From a virus (taxonomy: Duplodnaviria > Caudoviricetes): DNA of 64,000 nt. This document shows positions 23,777 through 48,584 of the stretch, piece by piece. The stretch is taken from the IMG/VR virus record IMGVR_UViG_3300032319_000846, positions 1-64,000 of that record. One strand, written 5' to 3'. Below the pieces are notes generated by a model. It was not told the origin of the DNA. It saw only the letters and a program-made list of their open reading frames with translations, and ran no database searches. Made by a program: the position numbers and the translations under genes. Each line of letters begins with the position of its first letter. Position 1 is the first letter of the stretch.

Positions 23777-23793
23777 TTGAAAAATAATTGAGA

Positions 23794-23861
23794 TTTCATT
23801 TGGATATGTATGTATAGGTGTTGTATATTTGCAACTCACTAACAAATATATCCAAATGAAA
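23794..23861 (+). promoter_or_regulatory. promoter inside a start-codon-sequestering hairpin
   Basis: Perfect 14-bp inverted repeat TTTCATTTGGATAT / ATATCCAAATGAAA containing ATG 23856; TTG-N21-TATATTTG with the -7 element at 23824-23831. Confidence 0.8.
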
Positions 23862-24758
23862 AATCTAATTAATGTTGAAGAAGTATTAGAGCAGCTTGAT
23901 AAAACTTCTATTCTTTACAATTATTTAAGTACAAACCCATCATTAAAAATATTTTCATTATTTCCTTCTACTGAAAACAAAAAATCAGGAATTTATTGTA
24001 TTTTTACTTTACATAATAGTAAGGTGTATATAGGAAGTGCTAAAAACTTTCAATATAGATTTAGAAAGCATAGATATTTGTTAGTAAACAATAAACATCA
24101 CAGTAAATATTTACAGAATTCTTATAATAAATATAAAAAAGATGATTTTTTGGTTTTTATTATAGAAGAAACACTGGAGTTGGAAAATAAAGAATTTTTG
24201 TATATAAAAATGTTTAATGCTGTTAAAGAAGGTTATAATGCAACTGAAGACACACAAAGAAATTTTTATGATGAAACACTTATTTCTAATAATAAAATGA
24301 GAAGGTCTATACCTGTAATAGCACTTGATTTAAAGGGTAATTTTATAAAAAGATTTGCTTCTGTTTCTGATGCAGCAAAAGCTTATAACGACCAAAGCAC
24401 TAACATTTCTAAATGTTGTAATGGAAAATCAAGACTTGTTAAAAACACTATGTTTATATATGAGAAAGATTATAATCCTGAACAGCAATATTTTTTAAAA
24501 GAACGCTCTTTTACTCATCAAAAATCTGATAGAATGAGGAAATTAACTTCTGAAAGAATGAAAGGAAAGGTTATTTCTTTAGAACAAAGATTACTTTCTT
24601 CTATTCAACAAGGAATAAAAATTCTTTGTGAAACGGATGGTTTATCATTTAGAAGTTTAAAACATGCTGGAAAATATTACAATATTAATCCTACATCTAT
24701 TAAAAGTAGTATTGAACAAAACAGATTATGCAAAAATTTAAAATTTATTTATCAATAA
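23856..24758 (+). CDS. free-standing GIY-YIG homing endonuclease with NUMOD1
   Basis: SGIYCI...YIGSA...R...H...GYN and NUMOD1-like F.SVSDAA.......ISKCC; ATG 23856 preferred over TTG 23829. Confidence 0.88.
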   Translation: MKNLINVEEVLEQLDKTSILYNYLSTNPSLKIFSLFPSTENKKSGIYCIFTLHNSKVYIGSAKNFQYRFRKHRYLLVNNKHHSKYLQNSYNKYKKDDFLVFIIEETLELENKEFLYIKMFNAVKEGYNATEDTQRNFYDETLISNNKMRRSIPVIALDLKGNFIKRFASVSDAAKAYNDQSTNISKCCNGKSRLVKNTMFIYEKDYNPEQQYFLKERSFTHQKSDRMRKLTSERMKGKVISLEQRLLSSIQQGIKILCETDGLSFRSLKHAGKYYNINPTSIKSSIEQNRLCKNLKFIYQ

Positions 24759-25040
24759 TTACACATTGGGAACAGATTTTTCCATCAATTAACTAACTAA
24801 TATGAAAAAATACACAATTCTTCTCATTACAAACATTTTCTTTTTTCTTTGTTTACTTCTAACAACAATATTTGGAAGTGATACAAAAGATGTATTATCT
24901 GCAATTTGGATTTTAGGAATGTTTCTTTTTTCCTATGTAGAACTTAAACTCTGCAAAAAAGAATGAAAACATTTTCTTTTTTAATAGGGTGCTTTTTGTA
25001 GCATCATTTTTTAACACAGTAATTAAAAAAACAAACAACA

Positions 25041-25556
25041 ATGTTTAATTTACACAAAGCAAGCTTTATTCCACAGGCAAATTCTCAAAAGAAAGAACCT
25101 GAACTTTCAGATTTAGTAGTAGTAAAAGAAGAGAAAAAAATTGAGTGGGATTTAATGTTTCTACCAGAACAAAATCGTTGGAAAATTAAACCCTCTTTTC
25201 TTGTTAATGATTTAGGTTATACAGCAGCATTACAAGATGGGTATTTATTTTTACTTCAAACAGGAGAAGATGCAGTAGAGATTTTAAAACCTAAATTTCT
25301 TAAAGGACTTGGAAACCTCTTTACATCAAACTATTTCAATCTACTTGCTGTACAAGCTGGATTTTCTATCACCGAAAAATGTTACTTGTTTCTTACAGAG
25401 CAGGAAACAGGGATTGAAAATGTAAAAGCATATCTTATAACAAAAGAAATTCCTAATGTTGTACTTCCATCTGTAGAAGAACTTCCTGTTTTATCTATTG
25501 TATTTGAAGAAAAAACTTTGGAAGAAGATTCTATTAACAAAACAGATTTATTTTAG
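25041..25556 (+). CDS. hypothetical protein with C-terminal TDLF
   Basis: ORF track; followed by a GAAA-loop terminator at 25578-25599. Confidence 0.7.
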   Translation: MFNLHKASFIPQANSQKKEPELSDLVVVKEEKKIEWDLMFLPEQNRWKIKPSFLVNDLGYTAALQDGYLFLLQTGEDAVEILKPKFLKGLGNLFTSNYFNLLAVQAGFSITEKCYLFLTEQETGIENVKAYLITKEIPNVVLPSVEELPVLSIVFEEKTLEEDSINKTDLF

Positions 25557-25625
25557 CCCATAATTTATTGACTTTTGGAGGGAGAAATCCCTCTTTTTTA
25601 CACACTTTTAAAATTTTATATTATT

Positions 25626-26282
25626 ATGTTTTCATTTGATGAAGCAACAACAGCAGCAGAAACTACCTCTTCTAATGCTAAAACACGTTTTCCTTTTCCT
25701 ACAAATCCTTCTTATGGTGTTGTTGCTAAATTAGTAAGCTACACTTATCCAGATAACAAAGATGGAGGAGATTTAGTGTTTGAAGCTCCTAATGGCGGCA
25801 CTACTGTTCGTACTCTTTGGAATCCCTCATTTAATAAAGGTGTTCCTAATCCTCCAGAAGTTATTAGTGGTGCATCTAAGGGTGTAGCAGGTCTTGTTAA
25901 AGCTTTAGGAATTACAAAAAAACCTACAGGTACGGTAAGTACATGGAAAGAATTCCTTGATGGATATTTTGGAAATGTAGATTTTACCACACTTAAAGCT
26001 ATTCGTGTTAAAGCGGGATATGCTAAAGATAAACAAGAGTTTGACCCTTCTAAATTTGAAGGAAAAACCGAAGAAGAAATTAAAGCAATTTATCACCCAT
26101 TTGTCAATATTTCTAAATCTAATTATTGGTATTTTGATGCTAATGATAAACGTGATTTTAGTGAATTCACCGCTTATGATAAAGTTTATACAGAGTTTGA
26201 GTTAACAGAGAATAACGCAACCCCATCAAGAGATGATGATTTACCATTTGGCCCTTCATCTAATGATGGAGATTTGTTTTAA
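25626..26282 (+). CDS. putative single-stranded DNA-binding protein
   Basis: Acidic tail DDDLPF...DGDLF; located between the Sak4-like ATPase and primase; the ORF-track start 25575 lies in the upstream terminator. Confidence 0.6.
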   Translation: MFSFDEATTAAETTSSNAKTRFPFPTNPSYGVVAKLVSYTYPDNKDGGDLVFEAPNGGTTVRTLWNPSFNKGVPNPPEVISGASKGVAGLVKALGITKKPTGTVSTWKEFLDGYFGNVDFTTLKAIRVKAGYAKDKQEFDPSKFEGKTEEEIKAIYHPFVNISKSNYWYFDANDKRDFSEFTAYDKVYTEFELTENNATPSRDDDLPFGPSSNDGDLF

Positions 26283-26316
26283 GAATTTTGATTTTGTTTC
26301 ATAGTTATAAAATAGT

Positions 26317-26349
26317 AAAGAGGGAGAGATATTCTTTCCCTCTTTTTTT
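26317..26349 (+). terminator. rho-independent terminator
   Basis: AAAGAGGGAGAGA-TAT-TCTTTCCCTCTTT + T-tract. Confidence 0.8.
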
Positions 26350-26555
26350 GTATCTTTAAATTTTAGAAAATGAACACATTAATTATAATTGGAAGCATTG
26401 GATTTAAAAGATGCTATTTTAACATATCTGAACAAGAAGCAATAGCAAGATATATTAAAGATGAAGATAGTAATTTGGAGTTTGTATTAGAACATATTGA
26501 TAGTTTTACATTTAATGATGAATTTTGTGCTTATGATGCTTGGAACTATTAATCT

Positions 26556-27545
26556 ATGTTTACTTATGATATTCCATTAACAAAACAAGAAATACTCGAA
26601 AGAATTTCACAGGAATCTATTTTTGAGAAGTATTTAGGAATATATCCTCAAACAGATGGTAGAAGATATATTAATCCTTTAAGAGAAAATAAAACACCTA
26701 ATACAGAATTTCTTTATATAAGAAATACATTGTATATGAGAGATTGGGGAGGAAATGATAAAAATTTGAATTGTTTTTCTATTGTTCAACTTCTATACAA
26801 CTGTTCTTATAATGAAGCTCTTAAACACATTGAAAATGATTTTGGGTTGGGCTCTCAACCAATCAATACAAATATTCCCACAATTCAAAGAAACAGCAAT
26901 TACAATCATGTGGAAGTACCTGTAAAGAAACTTACATCTATTCAAATAAGAAAAAAAGAATTTACAGAGAAAGAATTAAATTTTTGGAATTGTAATAATA
27001 ACTTCAACTTTACAACAGAAGAATTAGAAAAACATCAAATATATTCTACAGAATATGTTTGGTATAATGAAAATAAAATCAAGAGTAAAGAAGGAGTATT
27101 TGCTTATCAATTAAAACCTCAGATATTTCAAATATATTCTCCATTTTGTGAAGATAGAAAATACAGATTTAGAAGCACAGATTTAAAAGGAATATTGGTA
27201 AATGCTCATTTATTAAAACCTTCTAAAACTGTATTACTTACTAAGAGTTTTAAAGATGAATTTTACAGTAGGGTGTTAAGAGCAAATTCTACAGCATTAT
27301 TAAATGAAGGAATTATTCCTACAAGACAACAAATTGATTTTCTTAAAACAAAAGGAAGAATTGTATTGCTGTATGATAATGATGAGAAAGGAATTGCTGT
27401 AGCTAATAGAATTTGTGATGAATACAAGGAAGTTAGTAAAATCTTTTTACCTGTAGATTATGGTAAAGATGTAGATGAATCTATAAGAAATGTTGGGAAA
27501 AAAAAAGTACTATATTGGATGGATAAAAACGGATTATTAGAATGA
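26556..27545 (+). CDS. DNA primase (TOPRIM), Bacteroidota-phage type
   Basis: NPLRE.KTP and RDWGG N-domain; LTKSFKD; LYDNDEKG (DxD); KDVDE. Confidence 0.85.
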   Translation: MFTYDIPLTKQEILERISQESIFEKYLGIYPQTDGRRYINPLRENKTPNTEFLYIRNTLYMRDWGGNDKNLNCFSIVQLLYNCSYNEALKHIENDFGLGSQPINTNIPTIQRNSNYNHVEVPVKKLTSIQIRKKEFTEKELNFWNCNNNFNFTTEELEKHQIYSTEYVWYNENKIKSKEGVFAYQLKPQIFQIYSPFCEDRKYRFRSTDLKGILVNAHLLKPSKTVLLTKSFKDEFYSRVLRANSTALLNEGIIPTRQQIDFLKTKGRIVLLYDNDEKGIAVANRICDEYKEVSKIFLPVDYGKDVDESIRNVGKKKVLYWMDKNGLLE

Positions 27546-28884
27546 AAGAAATGAGCTATAGTTTTAAACATGAATGGGTTTTATATACTGATTTACAAAA
27601 ACAATTAGTACAAACTCGAAAAAAATTAAATCAAAATCATTTTAAAGAATTTTTAGAATTTTCTTTAAAAGGAGTAGTAAATGATTTAAAAGATAAATAT
27701 TTTCAAAAAGAAAATGGAAAGATTTTTAAGATTTGTAGTGTAACACATGAAGTACTTAATAGAGGTTATAATATTTATCTACATACAGCAGAGATAGGTG
27801 TATTAACTATTTATTTTAGAGATTCTTTTGTTCCAGAGAATTTATACAAAAGTTTAGTTGGCAACTACATTTCTCTTTCTGAAATAGAATTTAAAAAAGT
27901 AGAAAAACAAAGAATTCTAAAAGAAATTGAAATCTTACAAAAACAATTAAAAGAATTGTAATGAAAACTATAAAAAGAACAATTGTTGGAGAAGGAATTT
28001 CTAAACTATTTGGAGGATTTCCTAAAGATTTAGAAATCGGTAAACAATACGAGTTAAAATGGGATTTTGAATTACGACAGTATATGGTGTTAGATAAATA
28101 TAAAGCTATGAGTTTTAAATGGGATAAAAATTTACCACAATGAAAATAACTAAACAATTATCAGATGATGAGTTTGTTGTAAAACTTGAAGAACAGGATA
28201 AACAACGACATTTTGGATGTAAAATAGATGTAGTGCATGACTATGTAGCATTTTCTTCAAAAGGACAATTGTACAGCGAAGGAGCATTTAGTTTAGTAGA
28301 AAATGGTAGAGCTTCAGGAAATACATTAAGTGTATTTAAATGTGTACAAATTCCTATTAAAAGTATGTTTAAAATTGTATTACCTCTTCTTAATTCTCAT
28401 CCTTATTTACAAGAAGAACACTTTAAAGATAGAATTTATGATGTAGATGATACATACTTTAAAGACCATGGACAAAATAAACCAAGATATTTGAAAGGAG
28501 ATAAATATCCAGCTTATTCATATTCTAATAGTATAGTAAGGTATTGGAAAGAAAATACTCCTATGATTGCTTTTTCTATGAAAGGAGAAAAGGAATACAA
28601 TCATGTAACACTAAAATTCTTTAATGAGTTTGTACTTCCTACATTAAATAAATGAAAACATTTACATTTAGAATTACACAGAATGCTGTAGGATACTTTG
28701 AAGGTAAAATAGATATAGAAGCTTTTTCTGAAAATGCTGCTATTAATAAATTAAAAAAACTACAGGAAGAAGAACTAGAAGGATTGGTATATGGTTGGAC
28801 TACATCAGAGTTAATAAGTGATGGAAGAATAGAAGTTTGGAATAATGGAAAATTAGTTAATTAAAATTTATGAAATAATTTAGA

Positions 28885-29472
28885 ATGAAGTTTTTTAATA
28901 CAATTGGTTCAGACCCAGAGTTTGTAGTGATAGGTAAAGCTCCTGTTTCTATGGTAGGAATTGTAGGAGGAACAAAAGAACATCCACAACCAATTCAAAT
29001 TGATGGATGCTGTTGTTTAACAGATAATGTGTTGGTAGAATTTACAATTCCAGCATGTAATAATTTTAGTTCTGTTAAGAGTTACATTGACAGATGTGTT
29101 ACATTAACACAAACAGAATTACAAAAAATCAATCCTGAATGGGAACTACATGCAATTAGCAGTGTAGAATTTCCTGAATCAGAATTACAATCAGAGCAAG
29201 CTCAAACTTTTGGATGCGAGCGTAGTAATAACATCTATGCTTCTAATGGATTGAGTGATTTGATTACACCACAAGAAGTAGGTAATTTCAGGAGTTTAGG
29301 ACTACATACCCATCACGGATGGATTGATATTCCAAGTGAAGAAGAGTTAAAAGACTTCATATTTTTATGTGATTTATTCTTAGGAATTCCTTCATATATT
29401 TATGATAAAGATAGATTTAGGAGAGGCTTTTACGGGAAAATTGGTGAGCACAGAATAAAAAAAGAGTATGGT
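28885..29472 (+). CDS. phiEco32-like COOH-NH2 ligase type 2, exon 1
   Basis: TIGSDPEF, DNVLVEF, FGC, RSLGLHTHHG, RR.FYGK.G..R.K.YG; interrupted after GGT at 29472. Confidence 0.9.
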
Positions 29473-30516
29473 AAACTAACTAAAAACACTATATAATTAA
29501 TTAGTATTTTTTGTAAAATGTGTGTATTTTTGTATATAACTAAATATACAAAAAATGGAATTAGAACAGCAAGTAATTGAATGTCTTTTAAGAAAAGAAA
29601 CTATTTATTCTATAGCTAAAAAATTTAACAAAAGTCAAGAATTTGTTAGAAAAAGAGCTAAAGATAATAACATAGAAACTCTATCTTTTAAAGATATGGT
29701 AAAAAATAGAAGAATTGTCAGTGTTAATCCTTTTCTTGATTTAGATAATGAGCAGGTTCAATATTGGTTGGGTTTTTTAGCAGCAGATAGAGCAATCCAT
29801 GAAGGGAAGATTTCATTAGGTTTACAAGAACAAGATGAAATTCATATTGATAAATTCATAAAATTTATCAATCCTAAACTAAAAAAGACAAAACTTTTAG
29901 AACATAAGAAATATATTTCTTATAGGACTTCTTTTAGAAATCAAGAAATTTGTGATTATCTAAATCAATTAGGTATAACTTCTAAAAAGAGTTTTACACT
30001 TTTCTATAATCATTCTTTTAATAAACACTTTCTTAGAGGCGTAATTGATGGAGATGGTTATATAAGAAAATCTCACGGAGAAGTAAGTATAGCTACAGGT
30101 TCTATTTTATTTGCTGAACAAATTCAAAAATTTATTATAGATAATTACAGTGTAAATTGTACAATTAGAAAAGATAATTCTAACATATACACTGTAGGAG
30201 TTTATGGTAAAACACAGGTTACAAAAATATTAAATGATTTATATATTGATGCAGAAATTTATCTGGAAAGAAAATTTCTTAATGCCATGTCTCATAGAAA
30301 TATGGGAGCACAAACACCTTAAATTCAGGGAAACAGCATCAGCAATCCTGAGCAAAACTCATATTAAAAAGGAGAATTACTAAAGAAAAAATGTGGTTAG
30401 TAATTTGTTGATTTTTTAAGTTAGAGGATGTGCAACGACTATAATAGGTGCATCTTAACAGTATGTTTATATAGCTGAAGATGAAGGGATAGTCTGAACA
30501 GGAGAGAACCTGTTTG
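29473..30516 (+). mobile_element. group I self-splicing intron (IA-like) with a homing endonuclease ORF in L1
   Basis: The 5' exon TATGGT pairs with IGS GCCATG (30284-30289, U.G at the splice site). P2 CTCATA-GAAA-TATGGG; P3 CACCT/AGGTG; P4 TTCAGG/CCTGAG; P7 GACTA (30437)/TAGTC (30490); P9 AACAGG/CCTGTT; terminal G 30516. Splicing restores EYG|VEYRSL in frame. Confidence 0.92.
29555..30322 (+). CDS. intron-encoded LAGLIDADG homing endonuclease
   Basis: N-terminal HTH; YWLGFLAADRAI and FLRGVIDGDGYI motifs; YLERK end; the 3' end overlaps the IGS/P2/P3. Confidence 0.9.
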   Translation: MELEQQVIECLLRKETIYSIAKKFNKSQEFVRKRAKDNNIETLSFKDMVKNRRIVSVNPFLDLDNEQVQYWLGFLAADRAIHEGKISLGLQEQDEIHIDKFIKFINPKLKKTKLLEHKKYISYRTSFRNQEICDYLNQLGITSKKSFTLFYNHSFNKHFLRGVIDGDGYIRKSHGEVSIATGSILFAEQIQKFIIDNYSVNCTIRKDNSNIYTVGVYGKTQVTKILNDLYIDAEIYLERKFLNAMSHRNMGAQTP

Positions 30517-30732
30517 GTAGAATATAGGAGTTTAGGAGCAGGTATGTATCATTTTCCTAAAATAATTCAACAAGGGCTTAATAATATTAAACTTGCAATT
30601 GAATCTAATAAAATAGAAGAATTGAAAACGCTTTATTTTGAAACAATGAAACATATTTCGTTTACAAATAATTTATCTGTAGCACACGCAAAAAAATTAA
30701 ACAAAGAAATTATAAAAGATTTAACCAATTAA
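30517..30732 (+). CDS. COOH-NH2 ligase type 2, exon 2
   Basis: Begins VEYRSLG, the conserved (G)VEYR(T/S)L motif; spliced product 267 aa. Confidence 0.88.
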   Translation, partial: VEYRSLGAGMYHFPKIIQQGLNNIKLAIESNKIEELKTLYFETMKHISFTNNLSVAHAKKLNKEIIKDLTN

Positions 30733-30734
30733 TT

Positions 30735-31115
30735 ATGAATAACTTAGAAAAATCTCCTATTTACGTTTCGTGCTATGGTACATTACGCAAAGGCTTTGGT
30801 AATAATAGGTTGATGAGAGTGGAAGGAAATTCTTACATAGGAGCAGGTGTTACAAAGGAAAAATATGCAATGTATAAAAGTGGTATTCCTTATGTTATTA
30901 AGGAACCCCTTACACCTATTGTTGTAGATGTATATGAAGTTGCTCCTGAAAATCTTCCAAGAATTGATAGTTTAGAAGGACATCCTAATTGGTATAAAAG
31001 AGAAATTATTCCTGTAGTGTTGGAAGATGGAAAAGAATTAGATTGTTGGTTGTATTTTATGACCAGAACAGAAGTTAAAAATTATCAATTTGTAAAAACA
31101 GGAAATTATCAATAA
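30735..31115 (+). CDS. gamma-glutamylcyclotransferase (AIG2-like)
   Basis: YGTLRKG, VYEV, IDSLEGHP.WY.R, CWLYF. Confidence 0.9.
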   Translation: MNNLEKSPIYVSCYGTLRKGFGNNRLMRVEGNSYIGAGVTKEKYAMYKSGIPYVIKEPLTPIVVDVYEVAPENLPRIDSLEGHPNWYKREIIPVVLEDGKELDCWLYFMTRTEVKNYQFVKTGNYQ

Positions 31116-31120
31116 CCTTT

Positions 31121-32752
31121 ATGAAAAAATTTAAAAGCATTGATGAAAATAATTATAATGCAAATAATAGTTGTAGAACTTATTATGGTGTCAATAAAGA
31201 AAACGCTACAAACAAATTTTTTAAAAATGGTTGTTGTCAAGCTATTATAAGTATTATGCAGGAAGAAGAGGATTCTTCCTATTGGTGGAAAATTCTTGTT
31301 AGCAAATCAAAAGCTATTTCTACACTTTCTTGTATTGGAATTTCATTAGATGAATATTTAAATGAATTTACATCTTTAGGATTTCCCGCTATTGCAGAAT
31401 TAGAAGAAATTGATGGTGATTATGTATTTCATATAAACAACAATCCTAAAAACAAACATAGTTATTATTTGTTTTGCTGGTTGAGACATTTGTATTATAT
31501 GCAAAATATTGTAATTAATTATTTTCATTATAAGAAAGAGTGGGAATTATCCACAAATTTGCAAAAATATAATTTGTTAGGATTTTTACATTATAATTTA
31601 GGAGGATATAGTATATTTTACAAAAGGTCTGGTAATTTCTTAAAAGAAAATGTTGTAAAAGAGTTACAAAGCTTTAAGGTTACAAATCAAAATAATGTAC
31701 ACACAGAACATTATACTGAACATCTTAAAAATTATCAAAATTTAATATTAAATCATAGTTATTATTTTGAAAATTTTGCAGATTTAGATGAATATTTAAA
31801 ATCCAGTTTGCAAAATATCCCTAAAGTTAGAAAAACAAATGCTTATACAGATATTCAATTAAATGGTAAGTGTTATGTATTTGATGATTTAAATGGACAA
31901 ATTCCCAAGTTTCCTATTCGTAAGTATTATAATGGAAAAACAGGTATTACAATTGATTTAATAGAACCATTTTTAATCAAACAATCTATTTCTATGACTC
32001 CTTTAAAAGTGCTAAGTAGACACCCTTCTCATGAGGTGTTTCGGAAAAATTCAAATCTCTTGTTTAGTAAAAATGTATTGCTACGTTTAGGTAGTATCAC
32101 TGTAGTAGATGAAACTAAATATCAAGTAAAGATTAATTCTATTCCTTCTATTCAACGGAGTAGTAATAAATTTTTAATGAAACAATGTTTTGATATTGCT
32201 AAAGTTCCAACTACTAAATGGACTGCTAACATTGAAGAAGCTAAAACATTTGAATTCCCTATTATTGCAAAACATATAAAAGGGTCACGTGGAACTGGAA
32301 ATTACAAACTTGATAGTGTAGAAGATTTGATTAAATGGAGTACTCGTAGAAATCTTGATAATTACATCTACGAAGTATTTTTTAACTCAAGTAAAGAATA
32401 TCGTATTCATGTTTCTACACATGGAGTGTTTTTAGCTTGGAGAAAATTACGTAGAAACGATACTCCTGATAATCAAAAATGGTTTTTCAATAATATCAAC
32501 TGTAATTGGATTAGTGAGCAGAATGAATTGTTTGACACACCTAAAAATTGGGATGCTATTTGTACTGCTTCTGTAGCTGCTTTAAATGCTGTAGGACTTA
32601 CTATTGGTGCTGTTGATGTACGAGTTCAATCTAATAAAAAGAAAGCTCCTGAGTTTTGTATTATTGAGATAAATTCAGCACCCTCAGCTTCAAGTGTAAT
32701 GGCTGAGAGATATGTAGCAGAAATTAACAAAATTGTTGAAAAATCAGTTTAA
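31121..32752 (+). CDS. ATP-grasp peptide ligase (RimK/YheCD-like) with a long N-terminal extension
   Basis: SNKFLMK, PIIAK..KGSRGTG, KEYRIHV, GAVDV, IEINSAP. Confidence 0.88.
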   Translation: MKKFKSIDENNYNANNSCRTYYGVNKENATNKFFKNGCCQAIISIMQEEEDSSYWWKILVSKSKAISTLSCIGISLDEYLNEFTSLGFPAIAELEEIDGDYVFHINNNPKNKHSYYLFCWLRHLYYMQNIVINYFHYKKEWELSTNLQKYNLLGFLHYNLGGYSIFYKRSGNFLKENVVKELQSFKVTNQNNVHTEHYTEHLKNYQNLILNHSYYFENFADLDEYLKSSLQNIPKVRKTNAYTDIQLNGKCYVFDDLNGQIPKFPIRKYYNGKTGITIDLIEPFLIKQSISMTPLKVLSRHPSHEVFRKNSNLLFSKNVLLRLGSITVVDETKYQVKINSIPSIQRSSNKFLMKQCFDIAKVPTTKWTANIEEAKTFEFPIIAKHIKGSRGTGNYKLDSVEDLIKWSTRRNLDNYIYEVFFNSSKEYRIHVSTHGVFLAWRKLRRNDTPDNQKWFFNNINCNWISEQNELFDTPKNWDAICTASVAALNAVGLTIGAVDVRVQSNKKKAPEFCIIEINSAPSASSVMAERYVAEINKIVEKSV

Positions 32753-32872
32753 AATCTAACTTTTTTAAAAACTACTTTTACAGCTTTGTGTGTATTAAAT
32801 TATACATAGTTGTGAAAGTAGTTTAAAATTTAATTTAATCAATCATTTATAAAACTACTTAATTAATATAAC

Positions 32873-36850: not shown

Positions 36851-37044
36851 TGACTTTGTACACAATACAAGGAAATTTGTTTATTATAGGGAATGATTAT
36901 AGAAAGAATACTTATAACTATAAAGTTTCTAATAGAGAAGGAATTACATATTCTATTGAATTTACTAAACTTTTATTTTCTATGGATAGTGTTGAACATT
37001 CTTTTAAACTAATTAAGCTATAAAATTATAAAATTTGTAATTTC

Positions 37045-37086
37045 TTGCTATATTTGTGTAAAATTAAATTTATACAAATATGGCAA
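37045..37086 (+). promoter_or_regulatory. promoter inside a start-codon-sequestering hairpin
   Basis: TTGCTATATTTGTGTAAA / TTTATACAAATATGGCAA forms an 18-bp stem (two G.U pairs) covering ATG 37080; TATATTTG at 37049-37056. Confidence 0.78.
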
Positions 37087-37460
37087 AATCCAGAGTAGAA
37101 AAAACAAGAAATGGAAATACTTGGACAGAAGCAAGATATTTTCAGCAAATTAGGAGTGCATTAAGAAATGCATTTCGTTATTATAAACCTTTTCAAGAAG
37201 CATTAGAAAAATCTAGTAGACCTTCTCAATCTTTAAATAAACGTTTAAAAAAAGAATATCAATGTGCTCATTGTTTGAAATGGTTTAAGCGTTCTGATAT
37301 AGAAATTGACCATATTCAAGAATGTGGTAGTTTAAATTCTTATGAAGACATTGTTCCTTTCATTAAAAGATTAGCTGTTGAAGATTCTTCATTATTGCAA
37401 ATTCTTTGTAAGGAAGACCATAAAATTAAAACTAAATCTTATTTACAAAGAAAAAAATGA
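37080..37460 (+). CDS. HNH-type endonuclease
   Basis: YQCAHC...EIDHIQECG...LQILCKEDH..KT. Confidence 0.8.
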   Translation: MAKSRVEKTRNGNTWTEARYFQQIRSALRNAFRYYKPFQEALEKSSRPSQSLNKRLKKEYQCAHCLKWFKRSDIEIDHIQECGSLNSYEDIVPFIKRLAVEDSSLLQILCKEDHKIKTKSYLQRKK

Positions 37461-37633
37461 AAAATAGTATTAGAAATATGGTAGATGGGAGAACTAAAAC
37501 TGCTGGAAGTTTTGTTTGGAAAATCTTTAAAAATACATCTTGCTACTCCTCTCTTCACTCTAAAAATAAAAAAGATGAATCTTGAAAAACTCCCTAAACT
37601 AAGCTTTAGAAAATACAAAAAAAGAGAAGAAAT

Positions 37634-40600: not shown

Positions 40601-40671
40601 GTACATTAGAACAAGATGTTGTACAGATTAGAATGAATTATTTAGATTATTTAATAAATGAAACTTATTGA
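37634..40671 (+). other. cluster of small hypothetical genes
   Basis: Includes a QxKxKFGxxRFY-family protein (37634-37906) and other unannotated ORFs. Confidence 0.65.
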
Positions 40672-41515
40672 CCCCACTTTATTTTACATTGTAAAAGCTG
40701 AATTACAGCAAACATTATGGAGAATTTCTTTAGATGAGATTAAACTTGCTGCTAAATTAGGTAAATCTATTTATGTTGTAGATATATATCAAAATTTTGT
40801 ATCTTCCACCTATCCTTTATTTGAAATTGAAAAATATTTAACTATAGAGGATGTAGATGTGGTTTATTTAAGATATGAGCAAGAAGATGTAGTTGTGCTT
40901 CCAACAATTATATGTAATTTGTTATTTAAATTTCATAGTGGGTGGGTAAATTTAATGTATAATTATTTTTTATCTGAAGATTTTATTATACTTATACAAA
41001 CAATAAAAGATATTAGGAATAATTCAAATGAATGTTTTCCTATTATTACAGATATGTTTAATTGTTTTGTGGTAAATCCTACTAAATTAAAAGGAGCTAT
41101 TATAAGTGAGTACAGCTATAGAAATAAATTTAATTCTGGGTATGCTTTAGCTACATTTGAAAAGGAAAAACCTCCAACATTAAAAGCTATTGAAAATTCT
41201 ATAAAACCTAAGAAAAGCTTTAATTGGTATCTACAAAATGATATGCTTGATTCAGTAAGTCAGGGTTGCTTTTTGTTTAATGTGGAATTAATAAGTGAAT
41301 ATTCTAATAATAAATTTACTGAAGAAGTTTGTAAAATATTAAAACATTTAAATATTTGTACATTATTATTAGGAACAGGATTGTTTAAACTATCTAATTT
41401 ATTAGGAGAAAAAGTATTGATGTCTCCACATCCATTAGAAATTTTAAAAGATAAAAAAGAGTATAATACAGATATTTTTATTAAATTTGAAGAAATGTCA
41501 AAAATTAATTTCTAA
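40658..41515 (+). CDS. uracil-DNA glycosylase family 1-like protein, catalytically degenerate
   Basis: W..L, FP...DMFNCF, G.AL, PPTL..I, QGCFLFN, FT, LLG and SPHP occur in UNG order, but GQDPY is replaced by SEYSY. Confidence 0.75.
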   Translation: MKLIDPTLFYIVKAELQQTLWRISLDEIKLAAKLGKSIYVVDIYQNFVSSTYPLFEIEKYLTIEDVDVVYLRYEQEDVVVLPTIICNLLFKFHSGWVNLMYNYFLSEDFIILIQTIKDIRNNSNECFPIITDMFNCFVVNPTKLKGAIISEYSYRNKFNSGYALATFEKEKPPTLKAIENSIKPKKSFNWYLQNDMLDSVSQGCFLFNVELISEYSNNKFTEEVCKILKHLNICTLLLGTGLFKLSNLLGEKVLMSPHPLEILKDKKEYNTDIFIKFEEMSKINF

Positions 41516-41572
41516 TCAAATAAATTAGTTAATAATACTTGTAAATAGTTAAAATAAGTTGTATATTTGTTT

Positions 41573-41716
41573 ATGAAAAATAAACAGATACAAAGTTATG
41601 TTTCAGAGGAACTTTATCTTCAATTGAAACAGGTTGCACAGAGTCAAGGACTTTTAGTAGCAACACTAATCAGACAACTTATTATTAATCATTTAAAAAG
41701 TATTAAAAATGATTGA
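41573..41716 (+). CDS. ribbon-helix-helix (CopG-like) small DNA-binding protein, 47 aa (not in ORF track)
   Basis: MKNKQIQSYVSEELYLQLKQVAQSQGLLVATLIRQLIINHLKSIKND has the beta-alpha-alpha RHH pattern; overlaps the downstream nuclease start. Confidence 0.7.
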   Translation: MKNKQIQSYVSEELYLQLKQVAQSQGLLVATLIRQLIINHLKSIKND

Positions 41717-42497
41717 AGATGAAGGAAAATTCTACTTATATAGACATATAAGATTAGATACTAATGAGGTATTTTATGTTGGTATTGGAAGTAAACCTTT
41801 AGATGCAAAATCACATGAGTATATTTATACCAGAGCTTATAATCAAACCCAAAGAAGTGAATTTTGGAAAAGAATTGTTGATAAAACAGAATATAGAGTG
41901 GAGATAATTCTTGAATCTGATGATAAAGAGTTTATTGGAAATAAAGAAAAAGAATTTATTAGATTGTATGGTAGAAGATGTAATAATGAGGGTACTTTAG
42001 CAAATATTTGTACAGGAGGTATAAAAGATTGGAAATATACACATTCGAGTATTGCAAAAATTAAAATGTCTGAAACAAGAAAAGGAAGAAAAAGACCAAT
42101 TGAAGTGTGTGAAAAAATTAGAAAAACTTTAACAGGTAAACCAAGAGAGGATTTATTAGTATATTATGATATATATGATTTAGAAGGAATTTTAGTTTAT
42201 AAAGAAAAAACAGTAAAAGAGTTGTCTACTCTTTTAGGAGTTTGTTATTCTACAATTAGATATGCCACAATAAAAAAATATAAACTATTAAAGAAATATT
42301 ATAGTGTTGTTTCTGGTTCTTCTTTTGAATTAACAAATCATATTACTAAATACAGAGAAACCCATCCAACAGTTTGTACATCTAAAGATTGTGATAAAAA
42401 AACTTACGCTTTAGGTTATTGTATTTATCATTACTATCACGAAGCAGAAGGAGTCAAAGAAAGAATTCAAACTAATGTTAAAAAAAGAAAGTCTTAA
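41709..42497 (+). CDS. GIY-YIG-like endonuclease with NUMOD3
   Basis: FYLYRH...FYVGIG...RAY...E.EFI..YGR...G.LAN...GG; NUMOD3-like KMSETRKG/KIRKTLTG. Confidence 0.82.
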   Translation: MIEDEGKFYLYRHIRLDTNEVFYVGIGSKPLDAKSHEYIYTRAYNQTQRSEFWKRIVDKTEYRVEIILESDDKEFIGNKEKEFIRLYGRRCNNEGTLANICTGGIKDWKYTHSSIAKIKMSETRKGRKRPIEVCEKIRKTLTGKPREDLLVYYDIYDLEGILVYKEKTVKELSTLLGVCYSTIRYATIKKYKLLKKYYSVVSGSSFELTNHITKYRETHPTVCTSKDCDKKTYALGYCIYHYYHEAEGVKERIQTNVKKRKS

Positions 42498-43429
42498 TAA
42501 ATCTTTTAATCAAACTCAAATATCATGGTAATACAAATTTATGTGTGGAGTGTTTTTATATCTCTACTTATGCTACACCTCATCTTAAAAAAGGATAAAG
42601 GATTTTTGAAGACGGTAGAAGAAGAAAATAGATACACTCTTAAAGAAGCTATTATAGGACTTAATGTTATATCATTTTTTCCTATTGTAAATATTGTATT
42701 AATATTTGAAATTTTAAAAATAATGTATCATAGAAATGATTAGTTTTTTTATATATTTGTATTTAGGAACAATTGGATTATGGGGAATGTTATTTATAAT
42801 AAATATTATTCTTGATAGTTATTACTTTAAATTTATAAAAAAAACAATGCTTGATGTAGGAATAGTGTGGTATATATTATTACTAATTTTTCCTATAGCT
42901 AATTTGTTTCTTATATTTTTTGAATTACTTGAATTTATTGATAACATAAAATATCAACTATGGAAATTAAAAAATTTTAACAAATGAAAGAATGGTTTTT
43001 TAGTATTTTACAAAAAGCAGAAATTTACTATTCTTTTTTAAAAGAATTTTGGAAACAATATTATGAGCTATCCAAAATTTAGAATTAAGATGTTTAAAGT
43101 GTTTGCTTTACAAATCCCAGATGAGATAAAGCAAAACCTGTTAGATATTCAAAGAGTAGCTATAAGTTTAGGGTGGAGATTTTTAAGACTTAATCCTCAG
43201 AATTATGAATTAAGGATGTATAAAGAAGATGTAGATTGCAGATTAATTGTTTTTCTATCTACTCTAACAGTAAACAGCAAGCTTTATCATCCTAAACACA
43301 AGAAATACACCACATTAATACGTAAAAATTGTACAATTGGTGATGTACAGAGTTTATTATTGAATCCACGTACTCATTTAAGTAAAAAGGAATTCGTAAC
43401 TAATTATTCATCTAAATATAGAAAGAAAA

Positions 43430-44044
43430 ATGGAATTGTCTTTGTTCAAGAAGTCTTACCTGTCTAAATTAGGAACCAATAATGTTCCTTACAAAATCAT
43501 TAACTCTGCTGCTTTTAACAGTAAATTTGGAAATGTTCGTATTTACTCTGATGAGTATAAAGATGGATGGATACATTTAATTTATATTGATGAGAAAGTG
43601 TATGTTCTTCCAAGTGAATTATTTTTTCATGTTACAACAACTAAATTTCCTAAGAGTGCTGCTATTATTCCTTTTGCAACCCTCACTCCCTTCAATCCTT
43701 CATTTATAGGGAAGGTAGAAGCTTACAAAAAGAATGAATTTTCTACAGATAAAGTAACACAGGAAAATGTAAGTGGAGGAGAATTAATGGAAATTGCTAC
43801 AAATATTGGAGAGTTTTTAGAAGTAAAGAATAAATCCTATGGAGAATCTGCTTTAAAACCATTAAAAATATTTTCAAGAATTCATAGTTATGGAGCAAGA
43901 ATTGATGAGAAGATTGAGCGCATTAAAAATATTGATGTAGAAGATGAGAAAACAGTAAAAAACTGCGTTGTTGATATTATAGGAGGACTAATTCTCATTT
44001 GTAAAGATAAAGGGTGGAAGAATTTTAAAGACCAGTTAAATTAA
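43430..44044 (+). CDS. DUF1599/nucleotide-modification-associated-like protein
   Basis: C-terminal KNKSYGESA...RIDEKIERI...DIIG pattern. Confidence 0.6.
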   Translation: MELSLFKKSYLSKLGTNNVPYKIINSAAFNSKFGNVRIYSDEYKDGWIHLIYIDEKVYVLPSELFFHVTTTKFPKSAAIIPFATLTPFNPSFIGKVEAYKKNEFSTDKVTQENVSGGELMEIATNIGEFLEVKNKSYGESALKPLKIFSRIHSYGARIDEKIERIKNIDVEDEKTVKNCVVDIIGGLILICKDKGWKNFKDQLN

Positions 44045-44048
44045 AACT

Positions 44049-44070
44049 AAAGGGGAGAAATCCCCTTTTT
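44049..44070 (+). terminator. rho-independent terminator
   Basis: AAAGGGGA-GAAA-TCCCCTTT + T-tract. Confidence 0.8.
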
Positions 44071-44457
44071 ATTTATAAAAAATATGAAAGACTTAAAATT
44101 AAATGCTGCTGAATTAGTAGAAGAATATTTTAAAAATCTTCCAAGTGATTATTATACTTTGGAAGAAGCTTTAGCAGCAAAACTTGGGTACTTAGAAGGA
44201 TTTACAAAAGCATTATCACTTGTAGAAGAAGAAATAGAAATAACTAAGCAAAAGAATCAAAAAGAATACGAGTGGGAAAGATTTAATGACACTAGCTATT
44301 GTTTTAGAATTTATTAAAACTCAAAATGAAACATTAGAATTAAAGAGAATTGAAAAAGAAGGTTATCCAATGTTTCAATTTTATGAAAGAAATGATAAGA
44401 AAAGATATATTGGATATTTCGGTATGGATTATTTAATAATTAATTAAAAATATATAA

Positions 44458-45150
44458 ATGAAAAATAAAGTTGAATTAACAAACTGGATGAATGGGGATA
44501 AAGGAATTGCAAGGGCAGCTTGGACTTCCACTCAAATAAATATAGAAAATAAAACAGAAGAACAAATAGAAGATTTAATAGTAAATAAATTATGGAATAA
44601 TAAAAGTGGTAAACCTCACAAAACTCCTTTTGAAAGGGGGATTGTTGAGTTTAATATTACTTGTGACCAAGCTTCCCATATTCACTTAATTAAACATCGT
44701 TTAGCTAACATTAATGGAGAATCTGCCAGATATAAAGAATTGAAAGAGGATAAGTTTTATCTTCCTGATGATTGGAAAGGGGTTGAAGCTAAATTAAATC
44801 ATTTGTTTTACAATGAAAATGAATTTGTACAAGGGTTTGAAACATGGTATCAAATATTAGAGGGTTACACTCAACTTGGTAATAAATTATACCACCAATC
44901 TTTAGAAGAATTAACTCCTATTTTAGGAAGAAAAAGAGCTAAAGAATCTGCTAGATATTTTAAAACAATGAATAGTCAAATAACATTATCTGTAATGATG
45001 AATATGAGTTGTTTTTATAATTTTTACACATTAAGAGCAGATGATGGAGCACAGGATGAAATCCATGAAATAGCAGAACAAATGTTACAATGTATTAAGG
45101 AAATTGAAGGAAATCCTTTCCAGTACACCTTAGAAGCTTTTGGATTATGA
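44458..45150 (+). CDS. thyX: FAD-dependent thymidylate synthase
   Basis: H.TPFE, ThyX motif KHR.......SARY, ESARY, LR....AQ.EI. Confidence 0.92.
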   Translation: MKNKVELTNWMNGDKGIARAAWTSTQINIENKTEEQIEDLIVNKLWNNKSGKPHKTPFERGIVEFNITCDQASHIHLIKHRLANINGESARYKELKEDKFYLPDDWKGVEAKLNHLFYNENEFVQGFETWYQILEGYTQLGNKLYHQSLEELTPILGRKRAKESARYFKTMNSQITLSVMMNMSCFYNFYTLRADDGAQDEIHEIAEQMLQCIKEIEGNPFQYTLEAFGL

Positions 45151-46644
45151 ACAAAATAGATGTATTTATAAATAGATTAAAAAAACTTGGTATTATTGTT
45201 GAAATTTTTGCAAACTACCCTTGGATTTATATTAATACAATTAATGGAAAAAGAGTGACAGAAAAGTTTCAAGGAAATCATGGGTTTACAGCATTTTTTC
45301 TACAAATAAAAGGAGGAGTGAAAGTTACAGATACAAGAGAGATTTTTAAATTAATTAGAAAATATTTATGAAAATTATAAAAAGTAAATTTCCTAAAAAG
45401 TATATGATTGGTTTAGGAATTATCCATGTTTTAGAAGGATTGTTTATGATACTGACATTAGGAACTTATTCTACAAACTATAGTTTAGAATATGTATTAA
45501 CCCATCATAAAAAATTAAAACAAAACAATAAATTAGAAAATCATTAGAAAATTTAATAAAAATATGAATAAAAAACAATTTAGTGTTAGTGAAGAAAGAG
45601 CTTTAACAGCTTCTATAATTTCAGTGATTTTAATGCAACTTGCTGCTAAAGTATTAAAACAAGAAAATAAATTTTATCAACACAATGTAAGAAATTGGAT
45701 ATTTAAATGGGAACAAATTGTAGCTCCCACAATTTGGCAAATTGAAAAGTTAAAAAAACTGTTTATTCCTAAAAAAGAATTAGAATTAGTTAATCAAGAG
45801 TTAGGAACAGAATTAGAAGCTGAAGATTTAGAAAATGATTTAAATTGCGAAGTGGAATTATTTCAAAATTTTATTGCATTATATTTAAATAGTAACACTA
45901 CAGGAATTTATGAGTTAAATATGATAATAGAAAATCTTCTTGCTAAACAAAAAGTATATACAGAACAGGAAGTAGAAGATGTTGTTAATAGAACTCTCAA
46001 GACCATCACTCCTGCTGTAAAATATGATGTAAACACCTATAAACGTTTTATGATATGAGTAATTGGGTGAAATTCTATAAAAGAGAAAAAACAAATAGAC
46101 TCTTTTATTTATGTTCTTCAAACAAGTTCTTTAAAATAGGAGAAGAAATTATTACTAAAGTAACACAAGATTGTATTAGATTTACAAAACCATCTTTAAA
46201 CTATATAGGTAAAACTAATATAGTAACTATACAGCCTCTTTGGAAAGAAACACATAAACTTGGTTTTGTAAGTAATGTAGAGATTCCTCTTAATCAAAAA
46301 TTATATATTGATGAAGAAGAATCAAATGAAGATAGGGTTGTAGTGTATTTTAACAAAAATAACAATGGATAATCACAAAGAAGTTAAAAAAATTATTTCT
46401 AAGTTAAGTTTTAAAGAACTAATCATTTTATTAAAACAATGTGATTATACAAGTAGAACACGAAATAAAGAATTAAATAAAATAACAATTAAAAAAAATT
46501 ATACGCTTCTTTTAAGGTTAATGGATTTTTGTCCTTATTATACACACAAAGAAGAGTGGCTTAGTTTTATTTATAATCTTATTAAATTTTTAATTATTGA
46601 TAAACTTATTTATATAAAAACCTCAAATTTAAATAAATTAATTA

Positions 46645-47124
46645 ATGAATAGTCAAGGAATTTACAATGTAGTGGAAGCGGTGTATTTATGGTTACACAC
46701 AGCAGGATTTCAATTTGGAGATAAAACTAAACTACCTCTTGCTTTATCTTTAGTAGATGAAGAGGTGCAGGAAATGAAAGATGCTGTGAATAATAAAGAT
46801 GTAGAAGAACTTTGCGATTCATTAGGGGATATTTTTTTTGTGTGTCTCAATACTATGTATTTCTATGGAGTAAAGATGGAAGATGTGGGAAAGAAGTTTG
46901 AACAAATTGTTCAGAGTAATTATTCTAAATTCTGTCAAACAAAAGAAGAAGCTGTTTTATCTGCTGAAGCTTATATTAAAGGACAACACCCCACAAAGCT
47001 CAATCAAGAAATTCCTGCTAAATATGAATCTACAGGAAATTCTCAATATCCTTTTGTAATTAAACATGCTGTTAGTGGGAAGTTACTTAAAGGACTAAGT
47101 TTTAAACACCCTAATGAATTTTAA
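46645..47124 (+). CDS. MazG-like/PRA-PH NTP pyrophosphohydrolase
   Basis: EEVQE...ELCDSLGDIFFV...SNYSK...GKLLKG. Confidence 0.85.
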   Translation: MNSQGIYNVVEAVYLWLHTAGFQFGDKTKLPLALSLVDEEVQEMKDAVNNKDVEELCDSLGDIFFVCLNTMYFYGVKMEDVGKKFEQIVQSNYSKFCQTKEEAVLSAEAYIKGQHPTKLNQEIPAKYESTGNSQYPFVIKHAVSGKLLKGLSFKHPNEF

Positions 47125-48154
47125 ATATGTTAACTAAAGAACAAAAAAAGAAGAGAATTCAAAAGATTAAATTTGCTGCTGAGGAATTTTTGCAGGATGT
47201 AGGGAAATTTTCGGTGGAGTCGCTATATTTCTTCTTCTGGGGAATTGCAAAAAATAAGAAATATTCATATAAAGAAATTGAGAATATTATCAATTTTTTA
47301 ATAAAAACAAAAGGATTGAAAGTTAAACAAACAAATAACGAATATGCTTTATTTTAAAGTTTTTGTGTTTCTTGAATTATTAGCAATATTGTTTTATTTA
47401 ACAATATCTACTACAGAACTTATTAAAACTTACCAAAAACATAAGAAAAAAGGATGGAAAAAAGTTTGGGTATGGAGTGTGTATAATATTGATACAAATG
47501 CAATTGCTTTTTTAATTCTTCTTCCTTTAGTGGTTGCTATTCCTATTACAATAATTGGATATGCTTTTAATTTAGTAGATGTTATCATTAATTACTTAAA
47601 AACAAAATAAACATGTACACGCACACACTTACTGTTGGAGATGTTATTATATCTATTATTGCAAACACACCTAAACAAATTATTGATACTGCTAGTACTC
47701 TTGATGTAAAGCTTCATTATTCTTATTCTAAAAAAGAATTTGAAATATTATCTGATGTACAATACAATCACCTTTGTAACATTATTACAAATGAATTAGA
47801 TGCTATTACTAATTGTGAGCAACTCTATGAGTTTGTAAACAAAAATCCATATTACATAGAATTTTCTTCTAGAAAAGATGTAGAAGCAGAGTATGAAGAA
47901 CTTTTTGAAATTTGATATGAACTGGATTAATATTTTAATTATAATAGGAGCAGTTTTGCTCCTATTTTTATTTGATATTCATATAGTGGTAGAAAAAAAA
48001 CAGGTGTTTCTTTTTTACACTAATTTTATTACAAAGAAAAGAAATTATAAATACTTATTTACATGTAAATGACTGAAACTAAGCTCATTGTACTTGTATT
48101 ATTAGCTATTACTCTTTTGATTTTTGAAATTTTGTATCGAAAAATAAGAAAAGA

Positions 48155-48191
48155 GTAGTAACTTTGTATTTCACTAAATCAAATTACTATG
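48155..48191 (+). promoter_or_regulatory. promoter inside a start-codon-sequestering hairpin
   Basis: GTAGTAA(C)TTTG(T)ATTT / AAATCAAATTACTAT pairs over ATG 48189; TAACTTTG at 48159-48166. Confidence 0.65.
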
Positions 48192-48584
48192 AAAATATTT
48201 ATAACAATTACATTATTATTAGTAACTTTTAACATTTATGGAAACAACAATCTCTATTCAGGATTGCAATATGAGAGGGTAGGAAGAGCAATAAGTAGAC
48301 TTGAAACTGGAAACTACAAGTCTAAGTTATGTCGTAAATATAACAATTTATTTGGAATGAAAGTAGGGAGTAGAAAGTTTCATTACGGAAAAACTACAAG
48401 TAATTATGCTAAATATAAAAACAAGATGCTTTCTATAGCTGATTATGCTGCCTATGAGAAGAGATTGATTCGTAAATATCACATCACTACACAAAAGCAA
48501 TACATAGCTGTAATAAGTAGGAAATATGCTAAAAATCCTAATTATAAAAAATTATTACAAAAACAATTAAAAAACAGTTGTTAA
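48189..48584 (+). CDS. secreted glucosaminidase/GH73-like peptidoglycan hydrolase
   Basis: Hydrophobic N-terminal signal; LETG (catalytic Glu), NNLFGMK, YA.NPNY. Confidence 0.8.
   Translation: MKIFITITLLLVTFNIYGNNNLYSGLQYERVGRAISRLETGNYKSKLCRKYNNLFGMKVGSRKFHYGKTTSNYAKYKNKMLSIADYAAYEKRLIRKYHITTQKQYIAVISRKYAKNPNYKKLLQKQLKNSC

Follow-up and report, generated by a model that had tools for sequence, protein, structure and literature searches.

A candidate promoter-in-hairpin gate at three homing endonuclease cassettes of a phage with distant crAss-like affinities

Hairpins with embedded -7 boxes at three homing endonuclease genes

The DNA analyzed in this study comprises positions 1 to 64,000 of the IMG/VR virus record IMGVR_UViG_3300032319_000846 (Duplodnaviria; Caudoviricetes), hereafter called the window, which represents the first 64 kb of a single contig of 138,178 bp with a G+C content of 29%; gene-wide statistics cover the whole 138-kb genome. 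Three homing endonuclease genes in this window, belonging to the GIY-YIG (start codon at 23856), LAGLIDADG (29555), and HNH (37080) families, are each preceded by a TAnnTTTG box located 22-24 nt upstream of the ATG and inside a hairpin. The best explanation for this arrangement, to which a probability of about 0.6 is assigned, is a promoter-in-hairpin gate, by which RNA started at the embedded promoter would be translated and RNA arriving from upstream would not. The device is real and non-random at the GIY-YIG and HNH genes (sites 1 and 3), and it is probable at the LAGLIDADG gene (site 2). The evidence consists of the sequences themselves, predicted energetics, an enrichment among endonuclease genes, a strand asymmetry, and recurrence in other phages. 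A preliminary description, made from the letters of the window, had placed the same switch at two further positions, namely in front of an RHH/Arc-like gene paired with a GIY-YIG-type gene (site 4) and in front of a glucosaminidase gene (site 5). All five inverted repeats and their TAnnTTTG boxes were found where it had located them, and the identities of the genes (GIY-YIG with NUMOD1, LAGLIDADG, HNH, RHH/Arc-like with GIY-YIG-type, and glucosaminidase) were upheld. However, the glucosaminidase gene would have no more than a promoter of its own, and the RHH/GIY-YIG cassette uses different devices, that is, a box abutting the ATG followed by a coupling hairpin.

Site 1 (23794-23861, plus strand) precedes a free-standing GIY-YIG/NUMOD1 homing endonuclease gene (23856-24758; PF01541, PF07453; phrog_314). 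Its 5' arm (23794-23809) pairs with a 3' arm (23846-23861) lying over the ATG, and the TATATTTG box (23824-23831) is found in the loop region, 24 nt upstream of the start codon, so that the main 5' arm is situated upstream of the box and not within it. The 16-bp core is part of a helix of 31 pairs (23790-23866) with a predicted energy of -32 kcal/mol; in comparison with shuffle controls, as applied to each site, the fold deviated with a z of -7.7, and 0/200 shuffled sequences were equally stable. At site 3 (37045-37086, plus strand), in front of a free-standing HNH endonuclease gene (37080-37460; phrog_1985, E 7e-25), the TATATTTG box (37049-37056) lies in the 5' arm (37045-37062), and the 3' arm (37069-37086) buries the ATG in an 18-bp stem, two of whose pairs are G.U (z -5.6, 0/200 shuffles equally stable). 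Site 2 (29525-29554, plus strand) belongs to the LAGLIDADG gene 29555-30322 (PF14528, LAGLIDADG_3; phrog_4645, E 2e-38). Its box, TATTTTTG (29525-29532), overlaps the 5' arm (29527-29537), which is joined through a short loop (29538-29543) to a 3' arm (29544-29554), forming a perfect 11-bp A-U stem that ends at -1 and adjoins the ATG. A 3' arm covering or abutting the start codon, as described for all five genes, was thus confirmed for sites 1-3, whereas at site 4 the ATG resides in the 5' arm and loop.

The arms had been regarded as unrelated to each other beyond the promoter, which is not fully correct: the 3' arms of sites 2, 3, and 5 share the complement of the -7 box, because the 5' arm is the box itself at these sites. 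A repeated origin of the design remains plausible, but would be easier than implied, since any -7 box is partly complementary to A-rich leaders. The suggestion that the G.U pairs of the HNH site point to the RNA level gained support from the strand comparison. For site 1, the sense RNA was predicted at -31.8 kcal/mol versus -23.0 kcal/mol for the antisense RNA, and the values for site 3 were -20.0 versus -14.0 kcal/mol; the sense RNA is 6-9 kcal/mol stabler because of its G.U pairs. According to the coordinates, the 5' arms of sites 1-3 start 18-31 nt past the upstream stop codon, and terminating ribosomes would therefore not be expected to reach them.

Opening energies across the genome

Genome-wide, 184 genes were called and scored by the free energy needed to open the region from -12 to +6, comparing RNA that includes an 80-nt upstream context with a transcript whose 5' end lies roughly at the position expected for initiation from a -7 box. 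This opening energy replaced the mean pairing probability, which saturated and over-rated chimeras, and the test was defined independently of the hairpins seen beforehand. The difference between both RNAs had a median of 1.1 and a 95th percentile of 5.2 kcal/mol across genes. Values above the 99th percentile were obtained for sites 1 and 3: the GIY-YIG gene 23856 took rank 1/184 (23.0 kcal/mol for read-through versus 0.4 kcal/mol for promoter-started RNA) and the HNH gene 37080 rank 2/184 (15.0 versus 2.0 kcal/mol). The GIY-YIG-type gene 41709 (7.8 versus 0.5 kcal/mol) and the LAGLIDADG gene 29555 (6.7 versus 0.4 kcal/mol) were placed at ranks 5/184 and 6/184, respectively. Overall, the six endonuclease genes of the 138-kb genome occupied ranks 1, 2, 5, 6, 51, and 57 out of 184 (Mann-Whitney p 8e-5), the chance of at least four of them falling into the top six being 5e-6. 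Genes picked solely by a box 15-30 nt upstream of the start yielded p 0.005. The enrichment expected for nuclease and hydrolase genes therefore applies to the endonucleases, the hydrolase being at background.

The locking result was stable when the assumed start was placed 4-8 nt past the box and when the length of the upstream RNA was varied over 60-250 nt. At site 2, opening required 7.4-8.1 kcal/mol across these read-through contexts. At the three sites, RNAs started 4-8 nt past the box would keep at most a few nt of the 5' arm (predicted opening ≤0.5 kcal/mol). Swapping of the promoter modules showed the cognate combination to be far better at site 1 (23.0 kcal/mol versus ≤8.2 kcal/mol for non-cognate modules) and at site 3 (15.0 versus ≤10.3 kcal/mol).

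The TAnnTTTG boxes as putative host-type promoters and the proposed mechanism

TAnnTTTG corresponds to the consensus of the host primary sigma factor (PMC9723704, PMC7366714). In the genome studied, the density of TATATTTG is 14-fold higher in intergenic than in coding DNA, and a box exactly 22-24 nt upstream of the ATG was found for five genes versus approximately 0.5 expected from base composition. The predicted leaders (18-20 nt) can be set beside the median leader of 24 nt in Flavobacterium psychrophilum, where the -7 box is located at -12 to -5 (PMC9723704), and the modal leader of 23 nt in Bacteroides thetaiotaomicron (PMC7366714). Judged by these features, the boxes look like genuine host primary-sigma promoters. 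Read-through into site 1 probably originates from a further TATATTTG box (23056-23063, plus strand), 32 nt upstream of an AAA_24 ATPase gene, with no terminator predicted in the stretch between both. More generally, canonical terminators were not predicted directly ahead of the three genes.

Each of the three cassettes (23856, 29555, and 37080) would accordingly carry its own Bacteroidota sigma-A-type promoter. A polymerase starting about 5 nt past the box would produce an A-rich, unstructured leader of 18-20 nt, onto which Bacteroidia ribosomes, being independent of Shine-Dalgarno pairing, could load. Transcripts coming from upstream would additionally contain the 5' arm, represented by the box itself or by the sequence just before it, and this arm would pair with the leader and the start codon, so that the nuclease would not be translated from polycistronic RNA. 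Nuclease output would then be set by the promoter of the cassette, independently of the operon that was invaded; in the case of the LAGLIDADG gene inside the intron, ribosomes would in addition be excluded from the unspliced RNA. A lock of the start region is plausible in such hosts because mRNA structure tunes translation initiation in Bacteroidetes without Shine-Dalgarno pairing (PMC6847099).

Recurrence in other phages

Among nine homologues of the HNH gene from other phage contigs (28-32% G+C), seven feature a box no more than 27 nt away from the ATG, and one of them (L001) encodes a complete lock, its opening energy dropping from 12.9 to 0.7 kcal/mol. In several Crassvirales, either cultured or curated, the gene for the replicative DnaB helicase is split by an insertion carrying a GIY-YIG gene, as observed for Kolpuevirus, PhiCrAssBcn18, cr111_1, and cr112_1 (loci L028-L031, at about positions 1100-2100 of the locus), and the same design was detected in front of such GIY-YIG genes. 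In Kolpuevirus, which has a 14-bp stem with the box in its 5' arm, the opening energy drops from 11.5 on the long to 0.3 kcal/mol on the short RNA; the corresponding values are 8.2 and 1.1 kcal/mol for PhiCrAssBcn18 (rank 2/113 genes) and 9.9 and 0.6 kcal/mol for cr112_1. Comparison of PhiCrAssBcn18 and cr112_1 by eye revealed three differences in the stem, all of them G.U/A-U exchanges that keep the pairing, and a fourth in the loop. Other annotated endonuclease genes of PhiCrAssBcn18 ranked 5, 31, 33, 69, and 91 out of 113.

The module is carried in the DnaB insertion of the cultured Bacteroides phages PhiCrAssBcn14, 15, 16, and 18. In crAss001 and in most of the sibling isolates, the match was confined to the initial 39 nt of the query, which represent the helicase exon. 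These phages appear to have an uninterrupted helicase gene and to be devoid of the insertion, which implies that the module would travel with the mobile element; if the insertion is truly missing, carriers and crAss001-type phages represent a natural plus/minus pair among cultured phages. In Flavobacterium phage Fpv1, one gene possesses a 19-bp lock (6.7 to 2.4 kcal/mol).

Relatives of the GIY-YIG (site 1) and LAGLIDADG (site 2) proteins were not found in IMG/VR by peptide scan, and a covariation test was therefore impossible for these two sites. An empty counterpart of site 1 was not readable among relatives of the flanking AAA_24 ATPase, which are 37-47% identical and not syntenic.

Weighing of the gate against other explanations

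Several observations weigh against the gate as proposed. Every functional step, that is, promoter activity and start points, the read-through RNA, the block of translation, and its timing, is a prediction deduced from the sequence. The box at 23056 upstream of site 1 is of the same TATATTTG type, for which reason a division into early and late promoter classes is not evident. Moreover, the gate is not universal: it is missing at two of the six endonuclease genes of this genome. The GIY-YIG gene starting at 2507 on the minus strand has the same box and spacing with an unpaired ATG (rank 51/184), and the LAGLIDADG gene starting at 103343 on the minus strand has neither a -7 box nor an unusual hairpin. 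Likewise, several endonuclease genes of PhiCrAssBcn18 (those ranked 31, 33, 69, and 91) are without it. Conversely, rank 4/184 went to a non-nuclease, the primase gene 26556, with a 13-bp stem (region 26466-26580; 14.3 kcal/mol). Site 2 contributes little by itself, as its stem reached a z of only -0.7 and its cognate module performed no better than the chimeras. Non-cognate -7 modules still yielded 3-11 kcal/mol, indicating that part of the locking signal comes free, given the partial complementarity of -7 boxes in general to such A-rich leaders.

The last point leads to the view that the hairpins are a compositional by-product: in a genome of 29% G+C, a -7 box (TATATTTGT) is complementary by consensus to an A-rich leader (ACAAATATA...ATG), and folding would arise without selection. 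Stems of at least 10 bp near the start codons of about a dozen other genes, as well as the behavior of site 2 and the background level of site 5, fit this view. It hardly accounts for sites 1 and 3, with their extreme percentiles, the missing equals among shuffles, and the clear advantage of the cognate modules, nor for the main 5' arm of site 1 being located outside the box; the 2507 gene, which combines the same box and spacing with no lock, and the three pairing-preserving substitutions between the two Kehishuvirus copies also speak against it. A by-product is considered improbable. Action of the hairpins on the read-through RNA itself, either as terminators or pause sites without U tail or as RNase III-type processing sites, after which the promoter restarts transcription, is similarly judged to be quite unlikely. 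Stems of at least 16-18 bp would suffice for double-strand-specific RNases, and four HNH homologues (L004, L005, L006, and L008) have a G+C-rich hairpin that immediately precedes or overlaps the box and leaves the ATG uncovered, with a U tail following in L004 and not in L005, L006, and L008. Sites 1-3, however, are not followed by a U tract, unlike the predicted terminators of this phage with their G+C-rich stems and U tails, and were for this reason set aside as terminators; furthermore, termination or cleavage alone would not need a 3' arm positioned precisely over the ATG and leader.

Control at the level of DNA or by antisense transcription likewise appears unlikely. The palindromes would then serve as operators, bound by the nuclease itself or, at site 4, by the RHH protein, or facing promoters would limit expression. 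I-TevI of phage T4 binds an operator overlapping its own late promoter (PMC2988022), and site 4 directly precedes an RHH gene. Members of the RHH family autoregulate through repeats at their own promoter. Inverted -7 boxes were located on the minus strand at site 1 (23843-23850) and site 4 (41591-41598), and about 15 nt upstream of the ATG in the Kehishuvirus copies (L029, L031); such facing boxes leave room for antisense starts, promoter interference, or polymerase collision and count as a further point against the gate. They were not seen on the opposite strand at sites 2, 3, and 5, and are likewise absent from the Kolpuevirus and L001 loci; at site 3, a potential antisense box is disrupted by the ATG itself. 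The greater stability of the sense RNA due to G.U pairs argues for a role of the RNA, and arms 6-36 nt apart were judged unusual for a simple operator.

Sites 4 and 5 and endonuclease genes without the gate

The site 4 palindrome (41559-41593, plus strand) contains a -7 box (41562-41569) that is followed after 3 nt by the ATG of the RHH/Arc-like small gene (41573-41716; RHH_5 and NikA-like, both under the curated cut-off; phrog_3180). With a -17 leader, there is no switch (9.8 kcal/mol for read-through versus 9.5 kcal/mol for promoter-started RNA, rank 139/184), and a leaderless message would give only 4.2 versus 0.6 kcal/mol. On geometry, occlusion by a 3' arm was rejected for this site, whose layout rather suggests a leaderless promoter, an operator for the RHH protein, or a combination of the two. 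A second hairpin of 10 bp (41685-41694 pairing with 41707-41716, plus strand) buries the ATG of the GIY-YIG-type homing endonuclease gene 41709-42497 (phrog_314, E 2.5e-10), which overlaps the RHH stop codon. The last part of the RHH reading frame supplies its 5' arm, and an embedded promoter is absent. Given this position of the arm, synthesis of the nuclease probably depends on translation of the RHH gene, i.e., on translational coupling. The primase gene 26556 looks similar in layout, since the 5' arm of its stem resides in a preceding reading frame of 60 amino acids (aa) and an embedded promoter is absent as well.

Site 5 (48155-48190, plus strand) features a -7 box (TAACTTTG, 48159-48166) 22 nt upstream of the ATG of the glucosaminidase gene (48189-48584). 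Its stem is weak and bulged (7+4 bp, z -0.1), and the gene ranked 84/184 (3.2 versus 1.9 kcal/mol), which corresponds to background. Across contexts, 2.4-4.7 kcal/mol on the long RNA compared with 2.6 kcal/mol on the short RNA indicated no difference, and site 5 was rejected as a switch. The gate proposed for this gene, and with it the notion of a general timing system that includes a lysis-type enzyme, had to be abandoned.

Regarding the GIY-YIG gene on the minus strand (1548-2537 together with its upstream box), the longest open reading frame (1548-2543) has a wrong start at 2543. The start at 2507 was assigned because of the conserved N-terminus MKTGIYSITN... and the TATATTTG box (2537-2530) 22 nt upstream. 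Transcription of the small genes located downstream and of a tRNA-Arg would be restarted by a second box at 1493. The other ungated gene, a second LAGLIDADG endonuclease (102489-103343, minus strand; positions 690-1544 of locus L026), lies in the structural block, and its ATG overlaps the upstream stop codon (ATGA). Both ungated genes came from a paralogue search and were not part of the preliminary description.

A different gene of Fpv1 (L034, 870-890), encoding a homing endonuclease and splitting the DNA polymerase gene, has a TATCTTTG box that ends 4 nt before the ATG. The predicted start falls on the A of the ATG, and the message may therefore be leaderless, as is possible at site 4.

Relation to known systems

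In T-even phages and relatives, I-TevI, I-TevII, I-TevIII, segB, and Aeh1 mobE are controlled by a hairpin sequestering the ribosome-binding site (RBS) together with an embedded late or middle promoter, and RBS hairpins repress translation of T4 e (lysozyme), soc, 39, 25, and 26 on early polycistronic RNA (PMC2988022). The arrangement described here resembles T-even endonuclease control in that a nuclease gene would lie inside a longer transcription unit, a hairpin is predicted to hide the start on long RNAs, and a promoter situated within the 5' arm or immediately behind it would yield short RNAs unable to form the hairpin; both systems include intron-borne and free-standing genes of the GIY-YIG and HNH families. 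Unlike the T-even case, a Shine-Dalgarno sequence is not involved, the AUG and an A-rich leader being hidden instead, and the promoter is a host primary-sigma box (TAnnTTTG) and not a gp55-dependent phage late promoter (TATAAATA). The promoter consequently provides no inherent temporal control. The 5' arm is formed by the box itself at three sites; in addition, a LAGLIDADG gene is included, and host phylum and phage lineage are unrelated. The I-TevI-like logic claimed for the whole block fits three homing endonuclease genes (ranks 1, 2, and 6 of 184) and fails for the RHH and glucosaminidase genes and for the genes starting at 2507 and 103343. T4 e, soc, 39, 25, and 26 do provide a precedent for gating of a lysis enzyme, but the glucosaminidase gene is without a lock above background.

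As in I-TevI autorepression, where the operator overlaps the nuclease's own promoter, the site 4 palindrome, a possible operator, coincides in part with the -7 box of a nuclease cassette; it differs in that a separate RHH gene precedes the nuclease gene. Start-occluding hairpins opened by upstream ribosomes, known as translational coupling, are a general mechanism of bacteria and phages. The genes 41709 and 26556 share with it a 5' arm in the preceding frame, whereas sites 1-3 differ by their embedded promoter.

In the literature searched on crAss-like phages with homing endonucleases, promoters, and introns, such control was not described for Bacteroidota phages. The gate would thus represent known T4-type logic (I-TevI, segB, mobE) with new parts, suited to a host in which Shine-Dalgarno pairing plays no part. 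If this is true, selfish nuclease genes have converged on the same operon lifestyle in two unrelated phage-host systems, one relying on Shine-Dalgarno pairing and phage late promoters and the other on neither. For gene finding in Bacteroidota phages, a start-occluding stem with a -7 box located some 22 nt upstream of the ATG would mark mobile cassettes, and such boxes correct start codons, as in the case of 2507. The proposal is testable in cultured crAss-like phages, and in Bacteroides or Flavobacterium the module might serve as a small genetic part that ties expression to the promoter from which a transcript originates.

A wider reading is tentative and on balance doubtful: the gate may be a portable, Shine-Dalgarno-independent module of homing endonuclease cassettes and introns in Bacteroidota phages, cultured Crassvirales among them, which in crAss-like phages would allow the cell to discriminate between two polymerases. 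Early read-through RNA of the injected virion polymerase would stay silent for the nuclease, translation would be limited to host-polymerase transcripts begun at the embedded box, and the nuclease would thereby be linked to the middle or late phase served by the host polymerase. In phi14:2, the virion polymerase transcribes early genes without a consensus promoter, and the host polymerase transcribes middle and late genes (bioRxiv 10.1101/2020.03.07.982082). Because of this division, a two-polymerase reading is possible for the phage studied here.

Intron context of site 2

The LAGLIDADG gene resides in an insertion of 1044 nt (29473-30516, plus strand) that splits a COOH-NH2 ligase gene into two exons (28885-29472 and 30517-30732). 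The insertion is precise and in frame: the last letter is T in the upstream exon and G in the insertion, and the junction of the joined protein (...KEYG|VEYRSLG) matches the uninterrupted phi14:2 g039 (...KDYG|VECRSLG). The preceding T and terminal G fit a group I intron, and the insertion probably represents one. An Rfam match to a group I ribozyme was not obtained in the insertion, either at the gathering score or at E values up to 10; the Rfam model may miss a ribozyme core that is split by a reading frame of 768 nt.

Phage affinities and further structured regions

The phage has distant crAss-like affinities, as deduced from protein similarities: its capsid protein is a distant relative of those of the Cellulophaga phages phi4:1 and phi17:2 and of one epsilon crAss-like phage, and the best cultured relative of the COOH-NH2 ligase gene is found in the Crassvirales phage phi14:2. 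A megablast comparison of 20 kb of the window with the phage collection yielded no near-identical relatives. Base composition, missing Shine-Dalgarno motifs (none was seen in the 25 nt upstream of 99 plus-strand gene starts), and the TAnnTTTG boxes suggest a Bacteroidota host. The rightward block (6704-50252) is formed by 97 small genes, and giant reading frames of 3231, 2693, and 1526 aa are situated in the leftward block. Canonical terminators, G+C-rich and U-tailed, were predicted within the rightward block, which refutes its earlier description as a single long operon.

The intergenic stretch between the diverging leftward and rightward blocks (6380-6730) is highly structured (-85.9 kcal/mol over 351 nt). 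It holds a 19-nt repeat pair (6409-6427 with 6475-6493), beginning one base into a TACATTTG box, as well as a perfect 15-bp hairpin (6554-6602), and its possible functions include those of an origin, a regulatory hub, or a non-coding RNA. Phage phi14:2 transcribes long intergenic RNAs at a high level (bioRxiv 10.1101/2020.03.07.982082). Downstream of an ATP-grasp-like gene, a hairpin with 21-nt arms (86% complementary) followed by TTTAAAATTT was located at 32769-32824; though missed by a simple terminator scan, it looks like a terminator.

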